Source: an uncultured delta proteobacterium (GTDB taxonomy: Bacteria; Desulfobacterota; RBG-13-43-22). From it: 64,000 bases of DNA. The notes below the pieces were generated by a model, which had not been told where the DNA came from, searched no databases, and saw only the letters and a program-made list of their open reading frames with translations. Where the stretch lies: the NCBI GenBank assembly GCA_963711835.1, contig CAVQFQ010000018.1:1-64000 (forward strand), read 5' to 3'. Of this stretch, positions 13,461 through 58,376 are shown piece by piece (positions within the stretch are counted from its first letter, which is position 1; each line of letters begins with the position of its first letter). Made by a program: the position numbers and the translations under genes.

Positions 13461-13467
13461 GACCCCC

Positions 13468-14715: not shown

Positions 14716-14739
14716 GCCGGAGGAGGGATCCCTTAGTCC

Positions 14740-15231
14740 ATGCCTGAAATCGAAATTATCGACAACCCCAAGCTGAAAAGTTTTTTAAGAACGGTGACCG
14801 AGGCGGGTTTCACCAGCCTGATGTGGGGGGGCTGGATCTATCTCTTTTTGCCCGTTTTGAATATTATCTTATGGTACTTTGGAATACGGCTTTTTTATCT
14901 CGAAGTGGTTCAGACAGCCGGTTATAAAGAGTTTTTTGTACTCTTAGGCCGGGTGGGCTGGAGTATTTTAATTATCTTTGCGATTTTACGGTTGTGGGGC
15001 TTTTATAATCTCCGGAGATTCGGCAAACGGAATCGCCGTACCCAACACCCAGCCAATCAGGAGAATGAAAAAATGGCGGCCTATTTTCATCTGACCCCCT
15101 CTCAGTTCGATCGAATACGCTCCAGCCGGGAAGCGGTTTGGCCGGTTATTATGGAGCCGGAACTGGATGTTCAGGAGATGCTGAGTACGAAACAAAACCC
15201 CGATCTTCTTGCCGGAGGCAAAACGGCTTAA
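14740..15231 (+). CDS. pgaD: PNAG biosynthesis membrane protein
   Basis: Two TM helices and the WGFYNLRRF motif; follows pgaC. Confidence 0.85.
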   Translation: MPEIEIIDNPKLKSFLRTVTEAGFTSLMWGGWIYLFLPVLNIILWYFGIRLFYLEVVQTAGYKEFFVLLGRVGWSILIIFAILRLWGFYNLRRFGKRNRRTQHPANQENEKMAAYFHLTPSQFDRIRSSREAVWPVIMEPELDVQEMLSTKQNPDLLAGGKTA

Positions 15232-17594: not shown

Positions 17595-18206
17595 ATGCCA
17601 GCGCTTACAACCCGACAGAATGAGATTTTGGCTTTCCTCCGGGATTACCACAATCACCATGGCTACCCCCCGTCTCTTCGAGAGCTGGCCACCCATTTCC
17701 GGGTCTATCCGAATGCCATCCAGGACCACCTCAAGGCCCTGATACGGAAAGGATATCTGATCCGGGAACCCAACCGCTCCCGGGGGCTGCGTCTGATCCC
17801 TTTTACCCGCTCTTTGCGTACCATCCCCCTCTATGGGGCCATCCCGGCGGGAGACCCCCTGCTTATCGAGGAAACCCCTGAGGGCTATATGGTCCTGCCG
17901 GAAGTCTGGACCCGCGGGAAGGAGGTCTTTCTCCTCCGGGTCCGGGGAGAGAGCATGAGCCCTTACATCCTTCCGGGGGATCAGGTCATCGTCCGTCGCC
18001 AGGAGCACCTTCCCCAGGGGGCGGTGGGGGTCTTTCGCCTGGAAGGGGAAGTTACCCTGAAGCGCTACTTTCGCGAGAAGGATCGCGTCATACTGAAAGG
18101 GGATTCCCCGGAGTTTGTCCCCATGGTTTTGAAAGGGCGGGAACTGGCGGCTCTGGTCATCCTGGGCAGGGTGACCGGGATCTATCGTTCCGTGGAGAAA
18201 GGATGA
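17595..18206 (+). CDS. lexA: SOS repressor LexA
   Basis: LTTRQ..HGYPPSLRELA winged HTH, IPAG cleavage site, GESM (Ser) and VTLKR (Lys). Confidence 0.93.
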   Translation: MPALTTRQNEILAFLRDYHNHHGYPPSLRELATHFRVYPNAIQDHLKALIRKGYLIREPNRSRGLRLIPFTRSLRTIPLYGAIPAGDPLLIEETPEGYMVLPEVWTRGKEVFLLRVRGESMSPYILPGDQVIVRRQEHLPQGAVGVFRLEGEVTLKRYFREKDRVILKGDSPEFVPMVLKGRELAALVILGRVTGIYRSVEKG

Positions 18207-18235
18207 ATCAATGGTTTTGAGGGCTGCCTTGAAAA

Positions 18236-18829
18236 ATGAATGACCTGATTCCCTTAAAAGAAATTAGACGGCTGGCCTTATCCGGAGGAAGCATCCTCTT
18301 TTTTGGAGAGGCCATGTCCCGCCTCTCGGCCTACCTGATGGGTCTGCTGTCGGCCCGAGGGTCACCTCTTACCCTGGTTGATGCCGCCCAAGCCTTTGAT
18401 CCCTATCGGGTAGCCAGGATAGGCCGCTTTAAGGGAATTCCCCCGCGCCTGCTCCTGGAACGTATCCGCCTCAGCCGGGCCTTCACCTGCCACCAACTGG
18501 TAACCCTGCTCTGTGAGACCCTGCCTCGGGACGGAAGGAAAGAGCCCCTTTTCATCCTGGGTCCCTGTGGTCTGTTTTATGATGATCAGGTGGCCTTGAA
18601 GGAGCGGCAGGCCCTTTTCAAACAAGTACTCCGTTCCCTGAAAGGGTTAAAAGAAAGAGGCCGGAGGATTTTTCTCTTCCAGCCCCCGTTAGCCAGGCAA
18701 ATCAAAACCTATTATTTCGGCCGGGACCTGGCCCGTTCGGTCCGCTGGGTTATCCGAGTTCAGTGGGCGAAAGAAAAATTGGAAGGCCGGCTTTATCCCT
18801 CCTTCGCCCTTCCGGCGAGAAAGGATTAG
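18236..18829 (+). CDS. Degenerate RecA/RadA-fold protein (ImuA-like / PolB2-associated)
   Basis: LVDAAQAFDPY and RIRLSRAFTCHQL RadA-like motifs; no Walker A. Confidence 0.7.
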   Translation: MNDLIPLKEIRRLALSGGSILFFGEAMSRLSAYLMGLLSARGSPLTLVDAAQAFDPYRVARIGRFKGIPPRLLLERIRLSRAFTCHQLVTLLCETLPRDGRKEPLFILGPCGLFYDDQVALKERQALFKQVLRSLKGLKERGRRIFLFQPPLARQIKTYYFGRDLARSVRWVIRVQWAKEKLEGRLYPSFALPARKD

Positions 18830-18831
18830 CG

Positions 18832-19107
18832 GTGGGACGGACCGTCCTGCCTTTCAGCCAGGCCTTGGAGCGAGAGTATGGAGACTGGAAGAAGTTCCGC
18901 CGCGGATTGCGTCGGGAGGACCAGGAGATTTTAGACCGGCTTTTCGACCTGGCCCGCATCCATGTCCAGGCCGGGGTCTATGCCTCCCGCCCCTGGCCGT
19001 TGGAGACCATCCTGATCTCAATTCTCATTGAACAGGAAAAGGGCCTCCAGACCCTCCGGAAAGAGGTAACGGAAATGCGCGACCAACTGCTCCATCTTGA
19101 GAAATAA
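18832..19107 (+). CDS. Small alpha-helical PolB2-associated protein (91 aa)
   Basis: GTG start after an AAGGA SD. MGRTV..W..FRRGLR.EDQ..LDRLF resembles the small protein encoded beside archaeal PolB2. Confidence 0.72.
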   Translation: MGRTVLPFSQALEREYGDWKKFRRGLRREDQEILDRLFDLARIHVQAGVYASRPWPLETILISILIEQEKGLQTLRKEVTEMRDQLLHLEK

Positions 19108-19114
19108 ACAAGCA

Positions 19115-21421
19115 ATGCCTTCCCACGGCTGGCTTATTGATCTCTATGTCCGGGAAGATTTCCTGGCCCTCTGGTTCCGGCTCCGATCCGGGGAACTCCT
19201 TTGCCTGACCGATTCCTTTCCCTATCGTTTTTATGCCTGGGGAAACCCTTCGGCCCTCCGCCATTTGGAAAAAACCCTAAGACCCTATTTACGAAATACG
19301 GCCTGGACCCGGCGGATCGAATTCTGGAGCGGGAAACCGATCTCGGTGCTGGAACTGGAAATCCGTTCTTTAGAGAAACTGCCCCAAGTTCAGCGATTAC
19401 TGGCCACGTGTCCGGAAGGCCTTACCCTTTATAACTGTGACCTGAGCATCCCCCAGTATTATGCCTATGAGAAAGGGTTGTTTCCTTTATGCTCCTGTGA
19501 AATAGAGTGGGAACGGGGAAGCCTGAAGACCCTTAAGGTCTTGAGCTCTCCCTGGGATCCGGATGCCGATCTGCCTGAACTGAAGGTCCTGAAAATCGGC
19601 CTCACCGGTCATCCCCAGATCTCCCTGGACCGGGGGAATTCCATTCAAATTTTGCAGGAAGGTGTTTCGTTTGAAATAGAGGCCTCGGATATACCCGGGC
19701 TCCTCCGGAAACTGAACCATTGCCTGATGCGCCTGGACCCGGATCTGATCCTCTCCCGTCATGGAGACGCCCGCATCTTGCCTTTCCTCTGGAAGTGGGC
19801 TCAGAAAGAAAAAGTCCCTTTGGGCCTGGATCGGGATCCCCGGCCTCCCCTGCGGGCCAAGATAGGCCAAGGCCGCTCTTATTTTTCCTATGGCCAGGTC
19901 CTTTATCAAAGCACGGCGTTCCCTCTTTACGGCCGTCTCCATATCGATCAGGAAAATTCCTTTTTCTATAAAGAAGCCGGCCTGGAAGGAATCTTCTTTC
20001 TCTCCCGCCTGACCAAGCTGCCGGTTCAGACCCTGGCCCGCGCCACGCCGGGAACGGCCATCACCTCCATGCAACTGGACCGGGCCGTCCGGAAGAGGAT
20101 ACTCATTCCCTGGAAAAAAGGTCGGCCCGAAACCTTCAAAACCGCCTGGGAACTCCTGGTGGCCGACAAGGGCGGGCTGGTCTTTCAGCCTCCCATCGGC
20201 CTCAAGGAAAGGGTGGCCGAAATCGATTTTGTCTCCATGTATCCCAGCATCATGGTCCGACACAATATTTCGCCCGAGACCATGCTTTGCCGCTGCTGCC
20301 CGGAGCCGGTGGTGCCGGAGGCAGGCACCAACATCTGCCGGAAGCGGGAAGGGTTGGTGCCCCAAACTCTGCGCCCCATATTGAAATTAAGGGATGAATT
20401 AAAACATCGGATCAAGACCGGTCATCCGAAAGGGCCTCTTTATAAATCGATGCGGCAGGCCCTGAAGTGGATTCTGGTAACCTGCTTTGGCTATATGGGC
20501 TACAAGAATGCCCGCTTCGGCTGCATCGAGGCCCACGAAGCCATTACTGCCTTTGGTCGAGAGAAGCTGTTGCAGGCCAAGGAGTGCGCCGAAGAACAAG
20601 GTTTCCAGGTCCTCCACGGCCTGACCGATTCGCTTTGGATTCAGGCAGAGGGTTTGGATGAGACCAAGGTAGAAGACCTGCTGATCGCCATCCGGGAGCG
20701 GACCGGCCTGGACATCAGCCTGGAAGGGATCTATGACTGGATCATCTTTCTGCCATCCAGGGTCCGGGCCAGCCGTCCGGTGGCCAATCGTTATTTCGGG
20801 CTTTTCCAGGATGGGACAGTGAAAATCCGGGGGATCGCCTGCTGCTGCCATGACTCCCCGCCCTTCATCAAAAATGCCCAGAAGGATCTTTTGCTGACTC
20901 TTTCGGCGGCCAAGGATCGAGCGCATTTGGAGCAACAGGTCCCCAGCGTGCTGGAACGCCTGGAGGAATATGTTCTTAGTCTAAGAGATGGCCAAGTGCC
21001 GTCCCGTGACTTAATCATCCATCGCCGCCTAAGTCAAACCCTGGAGGAATATAAAGTCAATACCGCTTCCGTTCTGGCCCTGCAGCAATTAGAGGCCGTG
21101 GGTATCACCCTTTATCCGGGCCAACGGGTGGGCTACGTTTTGCGTGACACCGCTTCAGCCTCTTCTTCTGAAGCCGGCGTTCTTCCCGCCCCTTTCTTGG
21201 ATGGAGGAGAATCTTACGACCGGAAGAAATATCTGGATCTCCTGCTCCGGGCCGCTGCTGAAGTTCTGGTTTCCTTCGGGTTAAACCTTAAAGATCTGGA
21301 GTTTAAATTTGGGTCTGGACCACCAAGCCAAACAACTGCAAGAAGAGGCCGGCGTTGTCATGACCATCTCGGTCGGGAGGCTTTCAAGGGTTTACAGCGA
21401 GCCATAAAGTTGTTAAGATAA
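19115..21421 (+). CDS. Family B DNA polymerase, PolB2 (Dpo2)-type
   Basis: Motif A EIDFVSMYPSIM; motif B KWILVTCFGYMG; motif C HGLTDS (first Asp lost); exonuclease motifs not recognisable. Confidence 0.88.
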   Translation: MPSHGWLIDLYVREDFLALWFRLRSGELLCLTDSFPYRFYAWGNPSALRHLEKTLRPYLRNTAWTRRIEFWSGKPISVLELEIRSLEKLPQVQRLLATCPEGLTLYNCDLSIPQYYAYEKGLFPLCSCEIEWERGSLKTLKVLSSPWDPDADLPELKVLKIGLTGHPQISLDRGNSIQILQEGVSFEIEASDIPGLLRKLNHCLMRLDPDLILSRHGDARILPFLWKWAQKEKVPLGLDRDPRPPLRAKIGQGRSYFSYGQVLYQSTAFPLYGRLHIDQENSFFYKEAGLEGIFFLSRLTKLPVQTLARATPGTAITSMQLDRAVRKRILIPWKKGRPETFKTAWELLVADKGGLVFQPPIGLKERVAEIDFVSMYPSIMVRHNISPETMLCRCCPEPVVPEAGTNICRKREGLVPQTLRPILKLRDELKHRIKTGHPKGPLYKSMRQALKWILVTCFGYMGYKNARFGCIEAHEAITAFGREKLLQAKECAEEQGFQVLHGLTDSLWIQAEGLDETKVEDLLIAIRERTGLDISLEGIYDWIIFLPSRVRASRPVANRYFGLFQDGTVKIRGIACCCHDSPPFIKNAQKDLLLTLSAAKDRAHLEQQVPSVLERLEEYVLSLRDGQVPSRDLIIHRRLSQTLEEYKVNTASVLALQQLEAVGITLYPGQRVGYVLRDTASASSSEAGVLPAPFLDGGESYDRKKYLDLLLRAAAEVLVSFGLNLKDLEFKFGSGPPSQTTARRGRRCHDHLGREAFKGLQRAIKLLR

Positions 21422-24286: not shown

Positions 24287-24730
24287 TTGATTGCCGTCGA
24301 TGCTCTTCCACATCGTTTCCCTTTTCTGTTTCTCGACCGGATCCAGACCCTGATCCCAGGCGAGCAAGGCATCTTTTGTTTTCGGAGCTCGGCCGATGGT
24401 TATTATCTTTCGGGAAGCACCCCGCCTTCTTTTCAGCAGGCCCTCCTTTTGGAAGCCATGGCCGAGGGGGCCGGACTCATTTTGATCAGCGAGTCAGGCC
24501 AAAAGGATGAACCCGCTCCGGGGAAAGGCTATCTTTTGCGATTGGACCGGGTATTTTTTGAGGCCCTTCCCCAGGCCGGCCAGGAGATATGTATCGTTGT
24601 GAATAAAAAAATGGTCTTCGGGCAGATGGTCCAATTTCAGGCTCAGGCGAAATCCGGGGACGTCGTTGTCGCCCGGGCAGAACTCACCTTGTGGCGCGAA
24701 CCAAGGGAACAGGGTCAGGAGGATCGTTGA
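24287..24730 (+). CDS. FabZ/FabA-like acyl-ACP dehydratase (hotdog fold)
   Basis: LPHRFPFLFLD and LLEAMAE motifs. Confidence 0.75.
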   Translation: MIAVDALPHRFPFLFLDRIQTLIPGEQGIFCFRSSADGYYLSGSTPPSFQQALLLEAMAEGAGLILISESGQKDEPAPGKGYLLRLDRVFFEALPQAGQEICIVVNKKMVFGQMVQFQAQAKSGDVVVARAELTLWREPREQGQEDR

Positions 24731-25455
24731 AAGTCGGTTTGCTTATCCCGGCCTATAATGTTGAAGATCAGATCGGCGCCGTTATCGAGGGTGCCCGGCC
24801 CTGGGTGGATGGAATTTTGGTCCTGGACGACGGTTCCTCGGACCATACCCGCGAAAAGGCCTTAGGTCTGGGGACGGAAGTCATATCGAATAAGCCTAAT
24901 CGAGGGAAGGGGTATGCCTTGAAGCAAGGTTTTGCCTATTTCCGTTTTCATGGGTTTGAGACCATACTGACCATAGATGGCGATGGACAGCATGACCCCC
25001 GATATATCCCCCACTTTCTCGAGGCCTATAAAAAGGGAAAGGCCCAGGTCATTATCGGGTCCCGAATGGAAGAAGGTTCAAAAATACCCAAAGCCCGCTA
25101 TGTTCTCAACCTGATCGGGACCTACTGCCTTTCCTGGGCTACCGGACAATATGTCCCCGATTCCCAGAGCGGCTATCGTCTCTATGAGACCAAAGCCTTG
25201 GAGGGTTTATCCTTGAAAGATAACCGGTTCGCCCTGGAAACCGAAGTATTGATCAAGCTGGCCAAACGAGGTTGTGTCTTTTCCTCTATCCCCATCCCGG
25301 CTATTTATAATGAGGTCCGGCAGGCTTCTAATTTCCGGCCGGTGAAAGACATCTATCAGATCAGCATGTTGGTCCTAAGGAGTATTTTTTGGAAACGAGA
25401 AACCCCGCGGCCGAAAGGAACGTTCCTGTTGCCCTTTCGCCGGCGATTCGGTTGA
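24727..25455 (+). CDS. GT2 glycosyltransferase (DPM-synthase-like)
   Basis: IPAYN, DDGSSD, DGDGQH and DSQSGYR motifs; TTG start overlaps the upstream stop. Confidence 0.88.
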   Translation: MKVGLLIPAYNVEDQIGAVIEGARPWVDGILVLDDGSSDHTREKALGLGTEVISNKPNRGKGYALKQGFAYFRFHGFETILTIDGDGQHDPRYIPHFLEAYKKGKAQVIIGSRMEEGSKIPKARYVLNLIGTYCLSWATGQYVPDSQSGYRLYETKALEGLSLKDNRFALETEVLIKLAKRGCVFSSIPIPAIYNEVRQASNFRPVKDIYQISMLVLRSIFWKRETPRPKGTFLLPFRRRFG

Positions 25456-25459
25456 AGCG

Positions 25460-26683
25460 GTGGAGAAAAGAAAAGCCGTTATAACCGGCATCGGGGTGGT
25501 CACCTCCATCGGAACAAACCGCCGGGAGTTCTGGCAAAACCTTATCGCCGGCAAGACCGGTATCGGCCGGATAGACCTGTTTGATACGGCCCAATACCGA
25601 GTCACGATTGCCGCCCAGGCCAGGGGTTTTTCGGGCCGGGAGCACTTTACCTCGCGGGAATGCCGGCGGCTGTCCCGCTCCGACCTCCTGGGCCTGGTGG
25701 CAGCCCGGGAAGCCCTGGAAGAGATCCCCTTTAACACCCCGGCCCTTCCTCCCGACCGGATAGCCGTTGTCTTGGGCGCTGGAGCAGGGGGGATCTATCC
25801 GGCTGAAATCTATCGTCAGGACCTTTATCGTCATAAAAAACCGCGCTATCCTTCTTTTCTGCTTTCGTTTCCCATGTGCAGTCTGACCGATCATATCGGC
25901 AACCGCTGGGGCCTGACCGGTCCCCGGGCCACTATTGATACGGCCTGTTCCTCGACCATCACGGCCATCGGACTCGGTTTGGATTTCATCCAAAGAGACC
26001 AGGCTGATCTGGTCATTACCGGCGGCAGTGAATCCCTCTCGCAATTGACTTTTTCCGGATTTAATGCTTTGAAAGCCTTGGACCCCGAACCCTGCCGGCC
26101 TTTCGACCGGACCCGGCAAGGGCTTTCTCTGGGCGAAGGGGCCGCCCTGCTGATTCTTGAAGAAAAGGAAAGGGCCCGGGAACGGGGAGCTCCGGTCTAT
26201 GCCGAGGTATTGGGCTATGGCACCTCCGGGGATGCCCATCACATAACGGCTCCCCATCCGGAAGGGCGGGGGGCGATTTTGTCTATGGAGCGGGCTATCG
26301 CCAGGGCCGGGCTTTCGGCCGATGATATCGATTTCATCAATGCCCACGGTACGGCCACCCCGGCCAACGACCCGATTGAAACCAGGGCCATTAAAAAGGT
26401 TTTTGGAGATCGTGCCTATCGGATCCCGGTTACCTCCATTAAATCCTCGATCGGCCATTGTCTGGGCGCAGCCGGTGTTTTAGGGGCCGTCGCCGGTATC
26501 CTGGCCTTAGACCAAGGGGTCCTGCCCCCTACCCTGCACTTTAGGGAGCGGGATCCGGCCTGTGATCTGGATTATGTTTTTAACCAGGCCCGGAAAAAAG
26601 AGATACAAACCGTGCTTTGCAACGCCTTCGCCTTCGGGGGAAATAACAGTTCCATTGTCTTTTCAAAACCGGATTATGCATAA
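25460..26683 (+). CDS. Beta-ketoacyl-ACP synthase (FabF-like KS) with intact Cys-His-His triad
   Basis: DTACSS, NAHGTAT, GHCLGAAG and FAFGGNN motifs. Confidence 0.9.
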   Translation: MEKRKAVITGIGVVTSIGTNRREFWQNLIAGKTGIGRIDLFDTAQYRVTIAAQARGFSGREHFTSRECRRLSRSDLLGLVAAREALEEIPFNTPALPPDRIAVVLGAGAGGIYPAEIYRQDLYRHKKPRYPSFLLSFPMCSLTDHIGNRWGLTGPRATIDTACSSTITAIGLGLDFIQRDQADLVITGGSESLSQLTFSGFNALKALDPEPCRPFDRTRQGLSLGEGAALLILEEKERARERGAPVYAEVLGYGTSGDAHHITAPHPEGRGAILSMERAIARAGLSADDIDFINAHGTATPANDPIETRAIKKVFGDRAYRIPVTSIKSSIGHCLGAAGVLGAVAGILALDQGVLPPTLHFRERDPACDLDYVFNQARKKEIQTVLCNAFAFGGNNSSIVFSKPDYA

Positions 26684-27884
26684 CGCCGCGATTGTGGTGA
26701 CCGGTATAGGGGTTATCTCTTCCTTGGGGATCGGCCGGGAGGTCTTCTGGAAACAGTTTCTGGAAGGGCGGACCGGCATCAGACCTTTGACGGAAATTTC
26801 GCCTTTGGAATCCCCTATAGACTTCGGCGGAGAGGTGCCGGGATTCAAGCCCAAGGAATATCTCTCCCCTTTGGTTTATCGCAAGATGGGCCGGACCTCC
26901 CGTCTATCCGTGGCCGCCAGCATAGAGGCCCTTAGTGATGCCGGATTAACCATCAATGAGGCTGGTCAGGACCGGATCGGGGTGGTCATGGGAACGGGCT
27001 ATGGAAATTCAGGACTGACCGACGATTTTTTTTTAAGTTTCATGGAAGGGGGCGCCCAGGGAGCAAATCCCCTCCTTTTTGCCGACACCGTCCCCAACAC
27101 GGCCGCCAGCCACATCAGTTTATATCATAAACTTCGGGGTCCTTTGACGACCTTTTGCCAGAATTTGATTTCCTCTGAACTGGCCCTGGCTTATGCCTGC
27201 CAGGTTCTCGATTCCGGCCAGGCCGAAGCCATGCTGGTGGGCGGGGCGGATGAGCTCTCTCCGATTCTCCTTCATGCCTTTTCCGTCTTTAAAGCCTTGA
27301 ACCCATCCCCAAACCCGATCCTTGGTAAAGGGATCATTCTGGGAGAAGGGGCCTGTATATTAGTCCTGGAGCGGGCCGAAAAGGCCCTGGCCCGGGGGGC
27401 CCGGATTTATGGGGAGATCAGGAATTGTGTTTTAAACAGCGGGGTAACTCAACCGGTCCAGTTTGAAGGAGAGGGTAACGAAATGAAAAAGGCGGTTTCA
27501 CGTTGCCTCAGCCCTGAAAATGAACCGGAAGCAGTGGAGTTGATCGGGCTTTCGGCCAATTTTTCTAAGGACCTGGACCGCCTGGAATATGCCGTCCTCA
27601 AAGAGGTCTTTGGGGCTAAACTCTCTCAAATAGCCTTATCCCCATTAAAATATTTCAGCGGAGAATTTGCCGGCATGGGCACCTTGAGACTGGCGGCCCT
27701 GCTTCTGGCTATGAGGGATCAGGTCCTTCCCCCCAGCGTCAACCCTTCCGAATTAGTGCCTGGTAAGCCTTGGGACCGGGCCTTTATTCCCGCCAGGTCG
27801 GGACCGGTAACCCAGGCCCTATTAACCGGGTTTTCCTTTGGGGGAGGAAATGCCTGTCTCTTAGTGAAGAAACCGACCTATTAA
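26676..27884 (+). CDS. KS-fold chain-length-factor-like protein, catalytic residues lost
   Basis: KS fold with QNLISSE in place of TACSS and both His residues absent; ATG overlaps the KS stop. Confidence 0.8.
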   Translation: MHNAAIVVTGIGVISSLGIGREVFWKQFLEGRTGIRPLTEISPLESPIDFGGEVPGFKPKEYLSPLVYRKMGRTSRLSVAASIEALSDAGLTINEAGQDRIGVVMGTGYGNSGLTDDFFLSFMEGGAQGANPLLFADTVPNTAASHISLYHKLRGPLTTFCQNLISSELALAYACQVLDSGQAEAMLVGGADELSPILLHAFSVFKALNPSPNPILGKGIILGEGACILVLERAEKALARGARIYGEIRNCVLNSGVTQPVQFEGEGNEMKKAVSRCLSPENEPEAVELIGLSANFSKDLDRLEYAVLKEVFGAKLSQIALSPLKYFSGEFAGMGTLRLAALLLAMRDQVLPPSVNPSELVPGKPWDRAFIPARSGPVTQALLTGFSFGGGNACLLVKKPTY

Positions 27885-32839: not shown

Positions 32840-33633
32840 CTATACACTGCCCACAATCTCAAGCCGGCTTTCGCTCTCCACTACGACTGGACCGGCTGGC
32901 CGACCGCCGGCACGACGTCTGCCCGCACAGATGCGCCGCTGTAGCGCGCGAAACCGCGTCCTTATGGGAAAAGGACGGCCTGCGCCTGCTTGAACCTCAC
33001 GCCACGGCTGAAAAGGTGCAGATTCTTTTCAGCGTCACCCCGCAGGTGAGCCCTACGTTCTTCTGCCAGCGCGTCAAAGGGCGGCTGCAGCATGCGCTCC
33101 GCAAGTTCGGCACGCCGGTGGATTTCAGCCGCAAGGTGTCGTTCCGCAGTCTCGGCGAGAACACCTCCGACGTGGTCGAAAACTATATCCGCGGCCAGGT
33201 CGGCAAGGGCGACTTCGCCGACCCGCGTTTTCGAGAGATCATGCGCCAGTTCACGATTGTCTCCGATGATGTGCGGCTGGCCGAGCCGTCGGAGTCCAAC
33301 AGCGGGCGGTACTGGTACGACCTGCATCTCGTGCTGGTGGTGGCGGATCGTTTCAGGATCACCGCCCCCGAGCAGCTCGGACGGATTCGCGACGCGGCTT
33401 TGGCCGTGGCGGCGGAGGGCGGCCACCGGATCGCGGCTTTGTCGGTGATGCCGGACCATGTCCATATGGCGTTGCGCGGGAATATCGAGCGGTCGCCGGA
33501 AGAGATTGCGTTGGCGTTTCAGAATGGGCTGGCGCGGGCCGCGGGGTGCCGGGTCTGGCAGGATGGGTTCTACGTGGGAACGTTCAGTGAGTATGATTTG
33601 GAGGTCATTCGTCGCATTGCCAGGCAGTCGTGA
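32840..33633 (+). mobile_element. Tandem-domain IS200/RAYT-like Y1 (HUH) transposase with frameshifted 5' part
   Basis: DHVHM HUH, VENYIRGQ Tyr helix and WQDGFYVGT. The N-terminus LYTAHNLKPAFALHYDW is in another frame; GC-rich codon usage. Confidence 0.72.
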
Positions 33634-42886: not shown

Positions 42887-43215
42887 TTGTCCCAAAGGGC
42901 TTCGGGGGTCTTGATTTCAAGGTTGTCCGAAAGGGTATCCGTAGCCCCAAACTGGGATCCACTCCGCAGGAGTGGGACTGAGCATTGTTTTGGATGCGAA
43001 GAACCCGGCCCGTCCGCCACGGCGGACTAAGTTGGTTGGGAGCCGGGCATTCATCCCGCCGAGGCGGGACTTTGGTGTTGGCCTGCTTCTAAACCCCATT
43101 ATAAATTTCCTGCCCGGGTTCAGGCTGCCGGCGTTTTGGCGGACAATCCTTGAAATTAAGACCCCCGAAGCCCTCTATGAATGGAGTGCTAAAAAATCAC
43201 GTAACTTTGGGACAA
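42887..43215. repeat. Long-hairpin MITE-like element, subfamily B copy 1
   Basis: Outer IR TTGTCCCAAAG/CTTTGGGACAA; inner ~34-bp IR at 42896-42929 / 43140-43174. Confidence 0.8.
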
Positions 43216-48230: not shown

Positions 48231-48300
48231 AGAAGAGTTTGACCCATTATTATTTGAGGTTATCCCAACGTTATTTTATTTTTTAGCCATCCGGTTCTAT

Positions 48301-48534
48301 GGGGCTTCAGGGGTTTTTATTTCGCAGTTGTCCAAAAGGAATCCCTAGCTCCAAAACCGCCCCGGCCGCCGTGGCGGACTAAGTTGATTCGGAGCCGGGC
48401 AGACACCCAACCCAAGACGATAAATCGCTTTGGTTTTGGTCCGCTGCGGCAGACGGTCGGCGTTTTAGCGGACAATCCCTGACATCAAGACCCTTGAAGC
48501 CCTTTGGTTTGAGAATCATGTAATGTTAGGACAA
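48301..48534. repeat. Long-hairpin MITE-like element, subfamily B copy 2
   Basis: gggcttcagggg..ttgtcc and ggacaatccctgacatcaagacccttgaagccc; homologous to 42887-43215. Confidence 0.75.
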
Positions 48535-48590
48535 TCTCTATAGTTTTGTGATACTATGACATAAAAATTTTTTTTTAAAAAGAGAAATAA

Positions 48591-48606
48591 TGTTCCACGT
48601 GGAACA
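48591..48606. promoter_or_regulatory. parS centromere site
   Basis: Perfect palindrome TGTTCCACGTGGAACA, about 360 bp upstream of parA. Confidence 0.92.
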
Positions 48607-48683
48607 TCTGGGAAAGGGGTACTTTCCTTGATCCCCACCATCTTTATAAAGACCTTTTAATTCCAATAAGCTATAATTCATTG

Positions 48684-48789
48684 GTATCGTTCAAAAGTTG
48701 TGGCATTATATTTCTGATACCGGAGGGAAGGGGACCGGTGGTCCCCAGTCAGGCCATAATGCGCCAATGCCAAAACTTTTGAACGATAC
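48684..48789. mobile_element. 106-bp MITE (family C) with 24-bp TIRs and a 10-bp target duplication
   Basis: gtatcgttcaaaagttgtggcatt / aatgccaaaacttttgaacgatac (23/24 match), flanked by taattcattg and taattcatcg. Confidence 0.8.
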
Positions 48790-48834
48790 TAATTCATCGG
48801 AAAGATGAGCATCGAATATAAGAAAGGAAAAAGG

Positions 48835-49431: not shown

Positions 49432-49455
49432 TCAGTTAATAACGTTCAAAAGTTG

Positions 49456-49626
49456 GAGGTTGTCCAAAAGGTAATCCGTAGCCCCAACCCGACCCATCCG
49501 CCGCGGCGGACTGCCGGCGTTTTGGCGGACAATCCTTGAAATCAAGACCCCTGAAGCCCTTTGGGGTGATTTAATATTTTAAGAGGCTACCCCTTGAGTT
49601 TGAGAATCACGTAACTTTGGGACTAT
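49456..49626. repeat. Long-hairpin MITE-like element, subfamily B copy 3 (truncated)
   Basis: ttgtccaaaaggtaatccgtagcccc..ggacaatccttgaaatcaagacccctgaagccc..aatcacgtaactttgggac. Confidence 0.75.
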
Positions 49627-49882
49627 CCCAAAAGTTGAGGCAATAATCCGGCCATTGAAATCCGAACCCACGAGTCCACATCAGGTTCATTAGGATGTCC
49701 CTTTGCCGGGAGGAAACGGCCTCGGTCCCCTCGGATCTTCCCGCCAAGAAATCCCCCCATATTAATACATAATTGTAATTAACAAAATTACCATATTACA
49801 GTTTTGTATAATACTAAATACCATTTTTGCAGTTTTATTTAATTAACATATTGTAATTACATATAATTTATTCATTTCCCCT

Positions 49883-49898
49883 TGGCAGGCCTTTTGCA
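49883..49898 (+). promoter_or_regulatory. Sigma-54 promoter of amtB
   Basis: TGGCAG-N5-TTGCA (GG-N10-GC), about 40 bp before the ATG. Confidence 0.75.
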
Positions 49899-49935
49899 AA
49901 AATATTATTAATTACCGTCTTTGGGGGGGAACCTT

Positions 49936-51834: not shown

Positions 51835-53943
51835 ATGGCTACCCCTTCTCACATCTATAACTTTAGGAATGAGGGTCAACTCGAGGAGGCCGATCTTCGG
51901 CACTATAATTTATATAATCTTATTGAGTTGTTAGGGTCGGAAGATCTTGAAAAGCGATTTAACAATGTAAAAAAAATTAATCGCAAAAGACTGATCGATC
52001 AAATCAATTATCTCAATTTTGCAGATGGTAATTTGATCATTGTCTTTAAGCATTCCAGGTACGAGGAACTCTTAACCATCCCGGCCATACCCGATCCTTG
52101 CCAAACCGAAGTTCTTTCCTGCCGGATAGAAAAGACCGGCTATGCTTTCCAGCACCTAAAAGAATCCAGGTTTCTTTGTTTCTACATTGAAGATGGGAGA
52201 AAAGTCCTTTTAGCCCGATCCGAAGAAATTGAACTGATTGATAACGGCCTCTGTATTAAGGTTCCTGAATTTTGTTATGAAATAAGCTCCCGGAAAACAA
52301 GACGCTATGCCTGCCCTGAGATTCAAGCCCAGGTGATCCAAAACGGTATCATCTTTTCCGGGCATCTATCCGTTTTCAGTATCGGCTCTTTTCAGGTTGA
52401 AATTTTCTCCGATGAGAACAGCTCCCTCAAATGGGTCAATGCCGAATATCCGGTTCAGGTTATTCTCAAAAAACAGAACCAGATCCTCTACACCGGCGAA
52501 TGCACTATAATCAAACACAGCCGAAGCCGCGATGCCAAGAGCCTGATTTTACTCCCCAGCCTTTCTCCCATTAAACGATTTAAAAAGAGGGAATTCCGGG
52601 CTCCGAGGCAGAAACTGCATCCCTCTCCGAGCATCTCTTTCCTCCATCCTTTAATCGGGAAATTAATTCACTTGACCGTTTGCGACTTATCCACGTCGGG
52701 TTTTTCCATTGAGGAGGAAGGGGAATCGTCCAACCTGTTGCCCGGCATGATCATCCCGGAAATAAAAATAGACCTGGCTACGGCCACGAACCTGGCCTGC
52801 CGCGCCCAGGTCGTCTTCAGGAATCCTTTGGATCAAAATATCATTAAGTGCGGGCTCACCATATTAAGTATGTCTACCGAAGACTATATCAGGTTATCCA
52901 ATATGGTGACCAAAACCTTCAATAACAACCTGGATGTTTGCGGCCTTATCGATTTGGAAAATCTATGGAATTTTTTCTTTGAAACCGGCTTTATCTATCC
53001 TAAAAAGTACCACTACATTCAATCCAACAAAGAAGCGTTTAAAAAATTATACGAAAAAATCTACACCGGCACCGCCGGAATCGAACGGCATTTCACCTAC
53101 CAGGAGCGCGGGGCCATCCTGGGCCATATTTCCATGTTGCATATCTACGATACCACCTGGATGCTGCACCATTATGCCACCACCCCGAACTCGAGGCATA
53201 AGAGGGTGGGCTTGACGTTGTTACAGCAAATTGAACGCTTTATTATCGATTCGCATTATATCGATTCGACTAAGATGGATTATATGATCTGTTTTTTCCG
53301 TCCGGACAATAAATTCCCCAATCTGGTTTTCGGGGGAGCGGCTCGGACCTTGCGGGATCCCCAAATTTGTTCCCTCGACAGCTTTGCCTATTTTAATTAT
53401 CCCCAGGCCTTAAACACCAAGCGGCAGGTTCTACCCCAACCCTGGGCGATGACCCGAACCGATCGGGAAGATCTGGAAGAGCTGCGAAACTTTTATGATC
53501 ATACCTCGGGGGGGCTGATGCTCCAGGCCCTTAATGTACAACCCGGTTTGGAAGAGGACGGTTCCCTCAGCCAGGCTTATCATAAAGTCGGCTTGAAGAG
53601 AGAACGCCACCTGTTATCCATCAAGAAGGATGGAGAAGTAAAAGCGATTATCAATTTGCTTATGACCGAAAAAGGACTCAATCTCTCCGAACTGGCCAAT
53701 TGTGTTTCCCTGATCGTCCTGGATCCCGAAGACTTCCCCTTCGAAATCTTTCTCAAGGCCTTGTCTAACTTGAGCCTGTTTGATGAACGGGAAATCCTCC
53801 CGGTCCTAATCTACCCGGTTCACTACGCCCAGAAATATTCCCTGGCTTATGAAAGAATCTATAATTTATGGGCCTTTAAGGTGGATAACAGCGATTTTTA
53901 CTTCAAGTATATTAACAAGATCTTCTCCCGCATTGTTTCCTAA
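51835..53943 (+). CDS. Large PilZ-domain protein with a putative C-terminal GNAT-like region
   Basis: RKTRR and FRAPR..DLSTSG PilZ-like motifs; the C-terminal pattern RHFTYQ..ILGHISM..WMLHH..FRPDN is reminiscent of acyltransferases. Confidence 0.6.
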   Translation: MATPSHIYNFRNEGQLEEADLRHYNLYNLIELLGSEDLEKRFNNVKKINRKRLIDQINYLNFADGNLIIVFKHSRYEELLTIPAIPDPCQTEVLSCRIEKTGYAFQHLKESRFLCFYIEDGRKVLLARSEEIELIDNGLCIKVPEFCYEISSRKTRRYACPEIQAQVIQNGIIFSGHLSVFSIGSFQVEIFSDENSSLKWVNAEYPVQVILKKQNQILYTGECTIIKHSRSRDAKSLILLPSLSPIKRFKKREFRAPRQKLHPSPSISFLHPLIGKLIHLTVCDLSTSGFSIEEEGESSNLLPGMIIPEIKIDLATATNLACRAQVVFRNPLDQNIIKCGLTILSMSTEDYIRLSNMVTKTFNNNLDVCGLIDLENLWNFFFETGFIYPKKYHYIQSNKEAFKKLYEKIYTGTAGIERHFTYQERGAILGHISMLHIYDTTWMLHHYATTPNSRHKRVGLTLLQQIERFIIDSHYIDSTKMDYMICFFRPDNKFPNLVFGGAARTLRDPQICSLDSFAYFNYPQALNTKRQVLPQPWAMTRTDREDLEELRNFYDHTSGGLMLQALNVQPGLEEDGSLSQAYHKVGLKRERHLLSIKKDGEVKAIINLLMTEKGLNLSELANCVSLIVLDPEDFPFEIFLKALSNLSLFDEREILPVLIYPVHYAQKYSLAYERIYNLWAFKVDNSDFYFKYINKIFSRIVS

Positions 53944-54179
53944 GGGAAAAATTTCACCCTCGACATCTATTTCCTTCTCTCGTATAATACGGCTAAAAGT
54001 GACCGAATGGTTATGAATTTGGATCCAAAAAGGGTTCGAGTTTTTTTTATTGACCCAACATGGATTGGATTCTTTGATCTAAAAGCGTTCAATGGATAAT
54101 ACCCCCAATTAAAATATTGCCCGGGAAGTAGGGAAGTTTGCGGCCTAATCCTGAAAACCGAAGCGGGAGCTTAAGGGTT

Positions 54180-56084
54180 ATGAACGATAGGCCCCTCTAC
54201 AGCAGTCGAATTTTAAATACCTATATCAACTTCGTTAAGAGGAATTACCCCGCCATTGATGTCAATGAAGTGTTAAGCTATGCCGGTGTGGAATCATATC
54301 AGGTAGTTGATGAAGGCCACTGGTTCACCCAGGAGCAGCAAGACCGCTTTCACGAAAAATTGGTGGAGTTAACAGGGAATGAGAAGATCGCCCGCGAAGT
54401 TGGAAGATATTCGGCGTCCCCAGATGCCGTCGGTTTATTAAAGCAATATGCCATTGGATTATTAGGTCCTGCCCATGTCTTTCAAATGGTAGGTAATATC
54501 TACCCGAAGTTTAGTAGATCCTCAACAATAAAGTTTAAAAAGATTTCCTCCAATGTTGTTGAAATCACAGCAACTCCCCGAGAAGATTCTTCTGAAAAAC
54601 CATATCAATGTGAAAATCGGTTGGGCATGTTTGAATTAACCATAGAAATGTTCAATTACAAGGCGGCGAGAGTTGAACATTCGGAGTGTATCTTTGAGGG
54701 GGCCAAAGCATGTAAATATTTAATTTCATGGCAAAAACCACGCTCTTTATATTGGAAACGGATTCGAAATATTGTCGGTCTGTTAGTATTGGGGCTCAGT
54801 GGTTTTCTGATTTGGTTGTTTCCTTGGGATACGATTACCATACTTTTGGCGATTTCCGTGTTTTTGGTACTAAGTTATTTTGTCAAAAACTTGGAAGAGC
54901 GAGAATTACAAATTACCCTTAACAATCTCCGAGATATGACGGAGCATCAGATTGATCAGATTGATATTAATTATAAAAATGCTTTAATGATCAATGAAAT
55001 TGGGCAGGCCATCAGTAAAAAATTAGATATTAATGCCATATTATTAAATATCATGCATACCCTGGAACAGAGACTGGATTACGATCGGGGGATGATCCTG
55101 CTGGCCAATGAGGATAAGACCCTGTTGCATTATGCTGCGGGTTTTGGCCTGGACGATGAAAAATTGAAAATTTTAAAGGAGACCTTTTTCCATCTGGATC
55201 GGCCGGAATCCAAGGGGGTTTTCGTCCTGTCTTTTCGCGAGCAAAGACCTATCCTGGTCAATGATATGGACAATCTTGAAAAAACCATCTCCTCCAAAAG
55301 CTTAGACATATTAAGGGGTATGGGAAGCCAATCTTTTATTTGTTGTCCCATCATCTATGAAACCGAATCAATGGGTGTTCTGGTAGTAGATAATATTCGG
55401 AAAAAAAGAGGATTGACTCAGACGGATATCAGCTTGTTAACCGGGATCGCCCCCCAAATAGGGATCAGTATTCATAACGCCCGAATGGTCAATAATCAGA
55501 AAAAACAGTTTAATTCGATTTTGCGAGTTTTGGCGGCCTCCATCGACGCCAGAGACCCGCTAACTGCCGGGCATTCCGAAAAGGTCACCGAGTATGCCGT
55601 GGGGATTGCCCGCATCTTAGAGTTGGACGGCGAGTTCTGTGAAATGATCGGAATCGCCGGGTTACTGCACGATTACGGAAAAATCGGGGTCCGGGATGAT
55701 GTATTAAAAAAGCCGGGTAAATTAACCGATGAAGAGTATACGGAGATTCGTTCCCACGTGGAACAAACCCGACGGATATTGGAACAAATGGAATTTGAGG
55801 GGATCTTCAATCAAATTCCTTCTATTGCTGGTTTTCATCATGAAAAGGTTGACGGCAGCGGTTATCCAATGGGTTTAAAAGGAGAGGAAATTCCCTTGGG
55901 AGCCCGGATCATTGCCGTGGCCGACGTTTTTGAGGCCTTAACCGCCGAGAGACATTATCGTCAGCCCATGAAAAACGAAGATGCTTTGGAGATCATTCAA
56001 AAAGGATCGGGCAATGCCTTTGATCCCCAGGTGGTGGAGGCCTTTGATCGTTATTATCATAACCATATTGGAAACTCCGGTTAA
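54180..56084 (+). CDS. V4R/H-NOX-like - 2TM - GAF - HD-GYP cyclic dinucleotide phosphodiesterase
   Basis: HDYGK, HHEKVDGSGYP and ARIIAVADVFEA; GAF (SFICCPI..GVLVVDN); N-terminal ECIFEGAKAC. Confidence 0.85.
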   Translation: MNDRPLYSSRILNTYINFVKRNYPAIDVNEVLSYAGVESYQVVDEGHWFTQEQQDRFHEKLVELTGNEKIAREVGRYSASPDAVGLLKQYAIGLLGPAHVFQMVGNIYPKFSRSSTIKFKKISSNVVEITATPREDSSEKPYQCENRLGMFELTIEMFNYKAARVEHSECIFEGAKACKYLISWQKPRSLYWKRIRNIVGLLVLGLSGFLIWLFPWDTITILLAISVFLVLSYFVKNLEERELQITLNNLRDMTEHQIDQIDINYKNALMINEIGQAISKKLDINAILLNIMHTLEQRLDYDRGMILLANEDKTLLHYAAGFGLDDEKLKILKETFFHLDRPESKGVFVLSFREQRPILVNDMDNLEKTISSKSLDILRGMGSQSFICCPIIYETESMGVLVVDNIRKKRGLTQTDISLLTGIAPQIGISIHNARMVNNQKKQFNSILRVLAASIDARDPLTAGHSEKVTEYAVGIARILELDGEFCEMIGIAGLLHDYGKIGVRDDVLKKPGKLTDEEYTEIRSHVEQTRRILEQMEFEGIFNQIPSIAGFHHEKVDGSGYPMGLKGEEIPLGARIIAVADVFEALTAERHYRQPMKNEDALEIIQKGSGNAFDPQVVEAFDRYYHNHIGNSG

Positions 56085-56893
56085 GAGGATAACGGCTTGC
56101 GGCCGCAGCAGGCAATTAGAGGTGTATAGGTAAATCGGCGGGGATGATGAAAAAAAGAGGTACACTCCTGAACGAAGGCCTCATAGGAGCCGTTGTACTC
56201 AGTAAATGGATAACCGATCTTGGGGGGAACCACTTCAATTTTTTTCATCCAGTTAAAGGCATCGGTGTCGTTGAGGGATCCATAGATAACATGATGGGCC
56301 GAAATATCGACCTTTATTTCCTCGTAGCCTAAATCATAAAAATAGGAATAGAGTTTTCTTCCGGCATAGGGATCAAAATTTGCTTTTTTCTGTAAAATCT
56401 CCGTGATGGCGAAGATGGTCTTTTCCAGACGACCGGGTATCCCATAATGGCTAAGACAGTTGTAATCCAAATCCATCAGGCATAAGATACCCCCCGGTTT
56501 TAAGATTTTGGTAATATTTTCTACCAATTGGGAGCCACCAACCAGATAGTACTCTAACAGAAACCGCACCCATAAAAAATCAAATCTGCCCAGGTCTTGT
56601 AACTCCTCTCTTGCATCCCTGCAAATAAAATGCAACCCAGGTTCAACATAATGGTTTTTGGCGTAGTCGTATCTATTTCGTGAAAAATCTATTCCAACCG
56701 CCTCCCCTCCCGGCTTGACCAATTCATAAAGGATAGAAGTTGTCTTTCCGGGACCACATCCTATATCAGCAACCCGCATTCCGGATCTTATCCCAGCCCA
56801 GAGGGCTTGGCGCTTAATCGTCTCCGGATCGGTTTTAAGGTCTAATCGGATTGATTCCTCTTCATTTTCCATGAGATAGGGTAAGGTTTCCAT
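56081..56893 (-). CDS. Class I SAM-dependent methyltransferase
   Basis: RVADIGCGPG, GIDFS, FDF and LKPGG motifs. Confidence 0.88.
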   Translation of the reverse strand: METLPYLMENEEESIRLDLKTDPETIKRQALWAGIRSGMRVADIGCGPGKTTSILYELVKPGGEAVGIDFSRNRYDYAKNHYVEPGLHFICRDAREELQDLGRFDFLWVRFLLEYYLVGGSQLVENITKILKPGGILCLMDLDYNCLSHYGIPGRLEKTIFAITEILQKKANFDPYAGRKLYSYFYDLGYEEIKVDISAHHVIYGSLNDTDAFNWMKKIEVVPPKIGYPFTEYNGSYEAFVQECTSFFHHPRRFTYTPLIACCGRKPLSS

Positions 56894-57038
56894 GGGGGCT
56901 CACTTTTTAATTTATAGTGCTATTATGCTTGAAAAGTATTATAGAATTTGAGAAGTAATTACCAGAAGAATCTGAATAGGTAAAAAAATATCCAACTTTT
57001 TATTAAAAAATATACCCACCTCCAGAAGGCGGATTTTT

Positions 57039-58376
57039 ATGAAAAGGCTTCTATTAATAAACCCCGTTGGAAGAAGAAGCGGTTATCTCTTAAGCCAATT
57101 CTCAACATTTTCTCCCTTGAGTTTAGCGTATGTCGCAGCGCTAACCCCTTCCCATTGGGAGATTAAAATTGTAGATGAAAATTTTGACACCTTTGAATTT
57201 GAGGAAGCCGATCTGGTTGGGATCACGGCCTTTTCCAGCAATATCAACCGAGCCTATGAATTGGCCCAAACCTACCGAAAAAAAAAGATTAAGGTGGTCA
57301 TGGGCGGTATTCATGCCTCCATGCTCCCAGACGAAGCCTTGAATTACTGTGATGCAGTGGTCCGGGGAGAAGTGGAGGGGGTCTGGGAAAAAGTAATTTC
57401 TGATTTCGAAAAGAACAATTTAGTCTCCCTATACAACGGGCCTCAGGTTGATCTTAAAAGGTATGCGATTCGTCCCCGCCGTGATTTGTTAAGTCCGAAA
57501 TATTTTTGGAATTCGGTTCAAACCTCCCGGGGATGCCCTTTTAATTGCCATTTTTGCTCGGTATCAAAATACCTGGGAAATGAATACCGTCAAAGAGATC
57601 CAGATCAGGTGCTTGATGAAATAGAACAAATAAATGGCCACTATATTACTTTCGTAGATGATAATTTAGTTGGTCATAACGAGGAACACAGAAACCGGGC
57701 CAAAAAATTATTTAAGGGCCTGATTGACCGGGGAATAAATAAGCATTGGTGGATGCAAACATCTATAAATGCGGCAGAGGATCTGGAGACAATTCAATTA
57801 GCCTCCAAATCTGGATGCATGATGGTTTTTATTGGATTTGAAACCATCAGCGAAGATTCTCTTTTGGGAATGAAAAAAAGGGTTAATCTAAAAATCGGGG
57901 TTGAAAACTATAAAAAGGTTGTGGATCGATTCCATCGTTATGGAATCGGGGTTTTGGGGGCTTTTATAATCGGCAATGATTATGAATCTTCTAATTATTA
58001 TAAAGCATTAGCCGAATTTATCATTCAAACAAACATTGACGTAGTGCAGATTACCATCTTGACCCCCCTACCAGGGACGGCCTTCATGGAAGAACTGGAA
58101 AAAGCGGGGCGTCTGATTTATCATAATTTTCCTGATGATTGGGAGAAATATCGTTTTTCTTATGTGGTCCATAATCCCAAGGGGATAACACCGGAAACCA
58201 TCTATAGCGGAGATAATTTCATCAAAGAACGGATTTATTCCTTCCCCAGGTATCAATTCCGCATTTTAAGATCGTTAATAAATCTAAAAAACCCAACCAA
58301 TTTTTACACCGTTTATAAATTAAATGAAGCCTATAAAAGAGGCTGGCAAAACTCCCATTATTATAAAAACTTTTAA
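57039..58376 (+). CDS. B12-binding radical SAM protein
   Basis: MGGIHAS, TSRGCPFNCHFC, IGFET and LTPLPGT motifs. Confidence 0.9.
   Translation: MKRLLLINPVGRRSGYLLSQFSTFSPLSLAYVAALTPSHWEIKIVDENFDTFEFEEADLVGITAFSSNINRAYELAQTYRKKKIKVVMGGIHASMLPDEALNYCDAVVRGEVEGVWEKVISDFEKNNLVSLYNGPQVDLKRYAIRPRRDLLSPKYFWNSVQTSRGCPFNCHFCSVSKYLGNEYRQRDPDQVLDEIEQINGHYITFVDDNLVGHNEEHRNRAKKLFKGLIDRGINKHWWMQTSINAAEDLETIQLASKSGCMMVFIGFETISEDSLLGMKKRVNLKIGVENYKKVVDRFHRYGIGVLGAFIIGNDYESSNYYKALAEFIIQTNIDVVQITILTPLPGTAFMEELEKAGRLIYHNFPDDWEKYRFSYVVHNPKGITPETIYSGDNFIKERIYSFPRYQFRILRSLINLKNPTNFYTVYKLNEAYKRGWQNSHYYKNF

Follow-up and report, generated by a model that had tools for sequence, protein, structure and literature searches.

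A PilZ-GNAT, H-NOX-fold sensor and methyltransferase gene module in an uncultured delta proteobacterium: a candidate c-di-GMP-coupled circuit for a lipophilic acyl compound

The window, by which we mean the whole 64,000-nucleotide stretch of contig CAVQFQ010000018.1 from an uncultured delta proteobacterium that was analysed here, carries a block of four genes (51835-58376) encoding a PilZ-PilZ-tandem GNAT enzyme (P0001), a membrane sensor-phosphodiesterase with an H-NOX fold (P0002), a methyltransferase (P0003) and a B12-binding radical S-adenosylmethionine (SAM) enzyme (P0004). Folds, motifs, co-occurrence and gene order define these genes as a module, and the four very probably act as one functional unit. 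The interpretation that we tentatively favour, at somewhat less than an even chance, is a circuit, coupled to cyclic di-GMP (c-di-GMP), of enzymes that make a lipophilic acyl compound and a receptor that reads it. P0001 would likely make a fat-soluble acyl compound, conceivably an N-acyl amide formed from an acyl-thioester donor, and P0003 and P0004 would likely methylate it, perhaps by esterifying an acid group. P0002 is predicted to bind this compound in its haem-less H-NOX pocket; the phosphodiesterase of the sensor would as a result reset c-di-GMP, which would in turn gate P0001 through its PilZ domains and so close a loop of presumed existence and sign. Where a histidine kinase or a cyclase forms the last part of the sensor, this ligand would act on a different output. 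Such a circuit best accounts for the combination of dedicated enzymes, a cytoplasm-facing sensor with an empty pocket, outputs that can be exchanged, a channel that recurs and receptors that stand as orphans.

P0001 is, on its modelled structure, a predicted c-di-GMP-binding acyltransferase. The AlphaFold2 model, built from 60 homologues (predicted local distance difference test, pLDDT, 83.5), consists of three beta-barrels and a two-lobed C-terminus. VIA-align identified a YcgR-N-like barrel at residues 37-152 (5y6h, Z 11.2, root-mean-square deviation (rmsd) 2.7), a first PilZ domain at about 150-243 (PA0012, 8u0i, Z 10.1) and a second one at about 251-366 (Alg44 PilZ, 4rt0, Z 11.7, rmsd 2.4 over 106 residues), and further PilZ beta-barrel matches to YcgR, MrkH and PlzA were retrieved by Foldseek and VIA-align. 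Residues from about 361 to 687 form a tandem GNAT (histidine acetyltransferase 9emd, VIA-align Z 13.6, rmsd 4.5, 263 aligned residues), for which Foldseek returned GlmA (5kgh, E 1.5e-9) as well as VipF, Orf14 and NMT. Because the Pfam GNAT profile (PF00583) passes its cut-off on P0001 (residues 417-472, E 1.4e-4), the GNAT call made by eye in a preliminary description of this DNA holds, as a tandem rather than a single domain; likewise, the PilZ-PilZ-GNAT layout given there was right about both PilZ barrels and the GNAT, and left out the third, N-terminal barrel and the tandem arrangement. The Pfam PilZ profile matches 26 of the 60 aligned homologues, not P0001 itself.

Motif conservation in this enzyme was counted over 131 diverse relatives, 600-760 aa long and drawn from the top 150 matches. 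The first PilZ site reads R153xxxR157, the arginines being kept in 115 and 118 relatives, followed by V180-x-S-x-x-S185 in place of D..G, while in the second site D284-x-S-x-x-G289 is intact, with S286 and G289 kept within 115-127 of the 131. The strongest conservation falls in the first GNAT lobe (W442 in 131/131, H446 in 130, H431 in 127, K391 in 125 and N492 in 122), where N492 presumably corresponds to motif B in the usual naming of GNAT motifs; we count the near-invariance of W442, H446, H431 and N492 in favour of the circuit. Clustered at 90%, the family comprises 775 proteins out of 7,994 scored candidates; at 50% identity it has 529 clusters whose E is <= 1e-30. By sequence it has no solved relative, a profile search of the PDB giving a single match at E 0.61, and a search of the ESM Atlas gave scores all below 0.9, in clusters that were unnamed or generic GNAT. 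Sixty members matched PilZ and Acetyltransf_1 only, plus two single weak matches (E <= 0.01); none of them matched a LuxI-type profile at that threshold and the fold is tandem, so that the idea of a LuxI-type synthase was not upheld. No FeeM-type profile matched in the Pfam scans, the presence of a FeeM model in that Pfam copy being unconfirmed. Relatives of the Syntrophobacter type (L084:8309-12070 and L089:8441-12058; P0246, P0251 and P0254) carry the PilZ-GNAT part fused behind a NERD domain and a Ser/Thr kinase in proteins of 1,205-1,253 aa, and one relative of 978 aa has a NERD-like N-terminus only.

The N-terminal domain of the sensor P0002 (model pLDDT 91.7; residues are numbered from the TTG at 54138) is closest to H-NOX proteins, with VIA-align Z 16.2-16.4 and rmsd 3.1-3.6 Å over 172-175 residues (Foldseek E 1e-7, TM 0.68). 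It also matches a cinaciguat-bound H-NOX (Z 13.8) and the small-molecule-binding domain of VirS (Z 13.1), and we count both likenesses in favour of ligand binding. The V4R label initially given to this domain captured the fold superfamily, but the V4R regulators DmpR and PoxR are far weaker matches (Z 8.0 and 7.8); the Pfam V4R profile gave no match on P0002 at E <= 0.1, and PF02830 is recorded for 2 of 120 listed homologues. From its model, the domain is more aptly called an H-NOX fold without haem. Across 69 aligned sequences no column with a common histidine exists at residues 107-159, where the proximal haem ligand was sought, the conserved histidine columns being only 61 (58/69), 72 (27/69) and 181 (68/69), and the consensus before C158 is E-K-P-F-Q in place of YxSxR, the propionate-binding motif of H-NOX. 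Since the proximal histidine and YxSxR are missing, canonical haem/NO sensing by P0002 is unlikely; with H61, another mode of haem binding is conceivable. The proximal histidine is absolutely conserved in H-NOX proteins (PMC7108781).

Two hydrophobic helices of P0002 start near residues 212 and 231, an arrangement that would place both the sensor domain and the GAF-HD-GYP part on the cytoplasmic side. The HD_5 profile matches with E 2.5e-43 and the HD (509-516), HHExxDGxGYP (567-577) and RxxR (605-608) motifs are all intact, which by motif and profile makes P0002 a putative HD-GYP phosphodiesterase. The c-di-GMP output attributed to the sensor would apply at this locus but is not general, as homologues end variously in HD-GYP, HD-GYP-PilZ, histidine kinase, PAS-kinase-receiver or class III cyclase modules and many are histidine kinases. 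The sensor domain is also predicted to carry the Cys-His-Cys-Cys zinc site of the Shewanella oneidensis subgroup of H-NOX proteins: C158 (69/69), H181, C184 and C192 (68/69 each) have the same spacing as C139, H161, C164 and C172 of the S. oneidensis site (PMC7108781). This spacing, together with the mostly anaerobic hosts, speaks for a one-way redox relay in which the zinc-cysteine site would sense oxidation without an organic ligand and set the phosphodiesterase, and c-di-GMP would control the acyltransferase with no feedback. We judge this scheme to be quite improbable, since the PilZ enzyme is also paired with sensors of the kinase or cyclase type, which breaks the c-di-GMP link, and since it leaves the FadL genes described below unexplained. 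DmpR-type ligand binders have a similar zinc site with a structural role, which also counts against it.

The case for a single module comes from co-occurrence and gene order. These were followed in 351 genomes (350 of the phylum at >= 90% completeness and the source genome) and at the best 80 of 544 named loci, many on short contigs, which were found by an alignment scan of genome contigs; a scan with a single protein found none. The PilZ-GNAT, sensor-domain and methyltransferase genes occur in 37, 34 and 28 of the 351 genomes, with pairwise overlaps of 32, 25 and 25. PilZ-GNAT and sensor share 32 genomes of 14 families, against 3.6 expected by chance if kinship is ignored, and 25 genomes of 10 families hold all three core genes, usually adjacent. 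Outside the source's own family the PilZ-GNAT and sensor genes lie within 5 kb of each other in 21 of 23 cases, and in one genome with two PilZ-GNAT copies (G084) each copy has its own sensor gene about 60 bp away. The sensor was found at 49 of the 80 loci, the methyltransferase at 60 and both at 37; for the 52 loci with >= 5 kb of sequence downstream the counts are 36, 43 and 31. Carriers include Geobacteraceae (among the cultured ones Geomonas silvestris Red330 and G. limicola Red745), Desulfobacterales, Syntrophobacter, Nitrospirota, Ca. Brocadia and other Planctomycetota. Of the four families whose co-occurrence across Desulfobacterota had been suggested as a check, three co-occur strongly, also beyond the phylum, and the radical SAM gene is an accessory member, a B12 radical SAM gene lying within 320 bp of a core gene at 8 of the 80 loci. 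Close orthologues of P0004 exist in 8 of 20 family genomes, and in 7 of these a pmbA-like gene stands between the orthologue and a sensor gene 1.5-3 kb away; as all belong to one genus, this linkage represents one inherited arrangement. The tree-distance correlations of the three core proteins (0.51-0.67, 35 loci plus the window) are of a kind that kinship alone gives, and the source locus forms a long branch in these trees, from which we claim neither donor nor transfer. Five genomes (G113 and G309; G005, G008 and G009) have sensors where no PilZ-GNAT enzyme was found, as orphan receptors would.

In a divergent clade (about 25% identity; four loci, one genus) a longer PilZ-GNAT gene is accompanied by methyltransferase and B12 radical SAM genes in 4/4 loci, and by a sensor detected by BLAST in 2/4. 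The PilZ-GNAT proteins of these loci (L125-L128, from G064, G099, G217 and G129) have 950 aa, with extra barrels and an extra N-terminal PilZ domain, and next to them lie genes for a methyltransferase and for a sensor that has two kinase modules, either one or two genes for B12 radical SAM enzymes and, at two loci, an NAD-dependent epimerase gene. The full four-gene set was also encountered, among bacterial-type neighbours, in a record titled Thermoplasmatales archaeon (L096), probably a mis-binned contig.

The tight, one-to-one pairing of enzyme and sensor genes would also fit a protein-level relay, in which the GNAT and the methyltransferase modify proteins, either the sensor or a shared target, or the PilZ-GNAT protein binds the sensor directly, and no small-molecule signal exists. 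H-NOX proteins bind their kinases and so provide a model for direct contact, the tandem-GNAT matches include the protein acyltransferases NMT and VipF, some family members are NERD-Ser/Thr kinase fusions, and no precursor-supply genes recur at the loci. As described in PMC8316039, the Myxococcus protein PixB acts through its GNAT, whose substrate is unidentified. We regard such a relay as unlikely, at about one chance in five, because it explains neither the recurrent FadL and B12 radical SAM neighbours nor those sensors whose genomes yielded no such enzyme, and because no lysine stands among the invariant or near-invariant columns of the sensor domain. A complex prediction for P0001 with the sensor domain (score 0.00, mark 0.32) is evidence neither way.

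The methyltransferase P0003 belongs to a family tied to the module, and a tight one, identities being 50-64% for 66 of the 67 relatives aligned. Its profile matched best the uncharacterised structure 3mgg, then phosphoethanolamine N-methyltransferases over the SAM-binding part; the match to juvenile-hormone-acid carboxyl methyltransferases (positions 34-242, E 5e-14) is longer than these N-methyltransferase matches, a hint of carboxyl methylation that falls short of an assignment. P0004 combines a B12-binding domain with CxxxCxxC, as expected for a B12-dependent radical SAM enzyme, and scored below the cut-off of every named NCBIfam family, HpnR, HpnJ, BchE and PhpK included (best 97 bits versus 650).

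A gene for a FadL/TodX outer-membrane channel lies within 1.8 kb of a core gene at 17 of the 80 loci in three phyla (Geobacteraceae, Desulfobulbia, Desulfobacterales, Syntrophobacter, Nitrospirota and Planctomycetota), and another upstream of a further sensor in G084; this fits a lipophilic ligand. FadL takes up long-chain N-acyl-homoserine lactones in Sinorhizobium (PMC9938287). The FadL family also includes hydrocarbon channels (Pfam Toluene_X), and the same channel genes are thus compatible with a sense-and-modify system, in which a compound entering from outside through FadL, or a membrane lipid, would be detected by the sensor and inactivated or remodelled by the GNAT and the methylases, with no autoinducer. 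The DmpR, PoxR and VirS folds bind outside compounds, a GNAT with a methyltransferase is a common detoxifying pair, and the best NCBIfam matches of P0004, far below cut-off as they are, are the lipid-modifying HpnR and HpnJ. Nonetheless, two PilZ domains on the enzyme suggest an output linked to lifestyle rather than detoxification, and no catabolic or efflux genes recur among the neighbour clusters inspected; we hold this system to be as unlikely as the protein-level relay.

Several findings weigh against the acyl-compound circuit that we favour. P0001 has V180 where 94 of the 131 relatives have D, the linker of its second PilZ site is RxxR (R255 and R258) throughout the family (127/131 and 126/131), and the canonical loop for the CoA pyrophosphate after beta-4 is variable, only G459 being kept (124/131). 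The substrate of a GNAT is not deducible from its fold, as stated in PMC8316039. The methyltransferase was not found in 7 of the 32 genomes with enzyme and sensor, the adjacent radical SAM genes of so few loci (8/80) belong to at least two subfamilies, and FadL is absent from the source locus and from 63 of the 80 loci, the one FadL-family gene of the source genome being distant, on another contig. Among the 40 commonest neighbour clusters inspected no acyl-CoA ligase, acyl carrier protein or other biosynthetic gene recurs, so that housekeeping metabolism would have to supply the precursors of the product. Furthermore, a haem-free H-NOX of Vibrio cholerae responds to oxidation through cysteines such as those of the sensor domain (PMC7108781), which also speaks for the one-way redox relay.

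It is tempting to go further and see in the module a new family of systems by which anaerobic bacteria of sediments would signal from cell to cell, namely sulfate reducers, Geobacteraceae, syntrophs, anammox Brocadia and Nitrospirota, an extension that we consider rather unlikely as a whole. A c-di-GMP-gated tandem-GNAT synthase would then make a long-chain acyl amide, the methyltransferase and variable B12 radical SAM enzymes would add strain-specific methyl marks, FadL would move the acyl amide across the outer membrane, and the haem-less H-NOX fold would be the receptor, with orphan receptors listening in. How Desulfobacterota, Geobacteraceae and anammox bacteria signal chemically is little known, although their biofilms play a part in corrosion, on electrodes and in wastewater granules; the module is a concrete, small and cloneable candidate for such signalling. 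If true, the H-NOX scaffold would have been reused for an organic ligand, and a handle would be gained on what PilZ-GNAT proteins such as PixB acylate.

The nearest known protein, and the only characterised PilZ-PilZ-GNAT protein found, is PixB (MXAN_2604) of Myxococcus xanthus. Like P0001 it has two PilZ domains fused to a GNAT, and c-di-GMP gating has been proposed for its acyltransferase activity (PMC8316039). P0001 differs in its tandem GNAT and third barrel, in the spacing of its arginine motifs, about 100 residues apart (153 and 255) versus 210 in PixB (R121 and R331; same source), and in its second motif, RxxR, whereas PixB orthologues are defined by two RxxxR PilZ domains and one GNAT. 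It also travels with a dedicated sensor and methyltransferase; no Myxococcus name appears among the matches listed for the P0001 family. P0002 shares fold and Cys-His-Cys-Cys site with the H-NOX sensors of S. oneidensis and V. cholerae with HnoK/HnoD-type outputs, and in both cases the output goes to c-di-GMP enzymes or kinases (PMC7108781); unlike them, it lacks the proximal histidine and YxSxR, has two membrane helices leading to GAF and output domains, and is paired with enzymes. DmpR and PoxR (V4R) and the N-terminal domains of the AraC-type VirS and CdpR share the fold superfamily of the sensor and bind small lipophilic ligands, but they match its structure less well, as the scores above indicate, and have other outputs. 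In the Xanthomonas RpfF/RpfC/RpfG system an acyl-chain enzyme makes a fatty signal, which a sensor reads through an HD-GYP phosphodiesterase. The module would work much like this system and like Ralstonia PhcB/PhcS, where a methyltransferase-made fatty signal is read by a membrane sensor (PMC8578825). The likeness is functional: synthase and receptor would belong to other families than those of Phc and Rpf, and the putative synthase P0001, unlike theirs, carries its own c-di-GMP receptor domains. No description of the module was found in the open literature, where only the PixB paper and unrelated titles came up, subscription journals lying outside the scope of the search; it would be an undescribed chemical signalling circuit in anaerobes.

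The coordinates of the four genes, their 4-nt overlap and the low guanine-cytosine (GC) content of the block, all noted in the preliminary description, were confirmed (Table 1). Block GC is 0.427, against 0.528 +/- 0.028 in same-sized windows of the genome, and is the lowest of 3,733 (1/3,733 this low); third-position GC of the block genes is 0.41-0.56 versus 0.61-0.63 in amtB, ftsZ and ftsA. This composition, the mixed gene orientations and the scarce linkage of the genes within the source's own family are what a recently acquired AT-rich island of unrelated genes without shared function would show. Such an origin is nevertheless highly improbable, being contradicted by co-occurrence and adjacency across 14 families, by the nearest homologues of all four proteins (56-68% identity), which are in the source's own family, and by the sister genus, where a PilZ-GNAT gene directly follows ftsZ in 10 of the 13 genomes where ftsZ was found. 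Of 59 loci, 56 have a PilZ-GNAT gene with less GC than its flanks (mean difference -0.042; for two close relatives, -0.09), and neither a tRNA gene, nor an integrase-sized ORF at the ends, nor a flanking repeat pair among those listed was found at the block; recent acquisition, as implied earlier, was therefore not sustained. Two more of the 13 genomes keep short 5' remnants of the gene after ftsZ (G010:C2:60999-61157 and G014:C15:126537-126692), which suggests loss; the partners of PilZ-GNAT in the sister genus lie elsewhere. With the block at the same ftsZ end in inverted order, the simplest reading would be a long-resident module that was locally rearranged.

Table 1. Features of the four-gene block (positions in the window)
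Feature	Position	Strand	Description
P0001 PilZ-GNAT	51835..53943	+	702 aa; YcgR-N-like barrel, PilZ, PilZ, tandem GNAT
Sigma-70-like promoter match	53960..53988	+	TCGACA-17-TATAAT (11/12); upstream of sensor gene
P0002 sensor-phosphodiesterase	54180..56084	+	haem-less H-NOX-fold domain, two membrane helices, GAF, HD-GYP
P0003 class I SAM-dependent methyltransferase	56081..56893	-	270 aa; single copy in genome
P0004 B12-binding radical SAM enzyme	57039..58376	+	445 aa; CxxxCxxC at 166-173; accessory member

Besides the GNAT, Pfam recognised GAF and HD_5, a class I methyltransferase, and B12-binding and Radical_SAM domains in the block proteins. P0002 could start at the TTG at 54138 or the ATG at 54180, the database record of 634 aa corresponding to the latter. 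The convergent P0002 and P0003 overlap at their stops (56081-56084), and 145 bp separate P0003 from the divergent P0004. Paralogues of P0001, of P0003 or of the N-terminal domain of the sensor are lacking in the genome, which holds about nine distant ones of the radical SAM protein and several of the HD-GYP domain. Independent sediment-metagenome contigs (97-99% identity) span the PilZ/sensor and sensor/methyltransferase junctions, and one contig with a 22-base gap spans that of methyltransferase and radical SAM; no single contig extends 31 bases into both radical SAM and ftsZ. In a sister population of the metagenomes ftsZ is followed by other DNA, which appears to be a diverged radical SAM gene. 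For each of the four genes, some part is represented among the RNA contigs of a single sediment metatranscriptome study, DNA carry-over being possible. A hairpin with a T-run (54015-54043) lies 3' of the promoter match upstream of the sensor gene; as promoter-like sites in the region do not exceed those in shuffled sequence (14 vs 15.4), the match is a lead only. A riboswitch before the sensor or PilZ gene was rejected, no Rfam family reaching its gathering score there and three miRNA matches (E 0.1-0.6) being due to chance.

A complete pgaABCD operon lies at 8320-15231, about 37 kb from the block, and its PgaA has an extra N-terminal SPOR domain. Control of a poly-N-acetylglucosamine (PNAG) biofilm had been proposed as a possible output of the module. 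Homologues of pgaB occur in 11 of the 351 genomes and in none of the 36 other PilZ-GNAT genomes, a weak result given that about one was expected by chance, nor was pgaB found in 12 family genomes searched; its absence from those 36 argues against PNAG as the conserved output of the module, and a dedicated role is not supported. The phosphodiesterase P0002 could affect PNAG through the common c-di-GMP pool, in a genome that holds about 10 GGDEF and 7 HD-GYP motif ORFs. We take GSU1240 of Geobacter sulfurreducens to be a PilZ gene, and make no tie between it and the PilZ-GNAT family.

Elsewhere in the window, a LexA-like repressor, a short ORF that by eye resembles RecA/ImuA and a family B DNA polymerase (17595-21421) likely form a damage-inducible mutagenesis cassette, and a glycosyltransferase gene followed by two genes that by eye are ketosynthase-like (24691-27884) possibly belongs to a lipid or aryl-polyene-type cluster. 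An intergenic repeat family (48231-48804, 49432-49935 and about 42890-43175), with about 200 BLAST matches in the genome, flanks a DJ-1/PfpI gene and includes a 28-nt inverted repeat (48680-48793); the family looks like a miniature inverted-repeat transposable element or a repetitive extragenic palindromic-type element. An IS200-like transposase lies in a high-GC patch (0.62) at 33016-33633.

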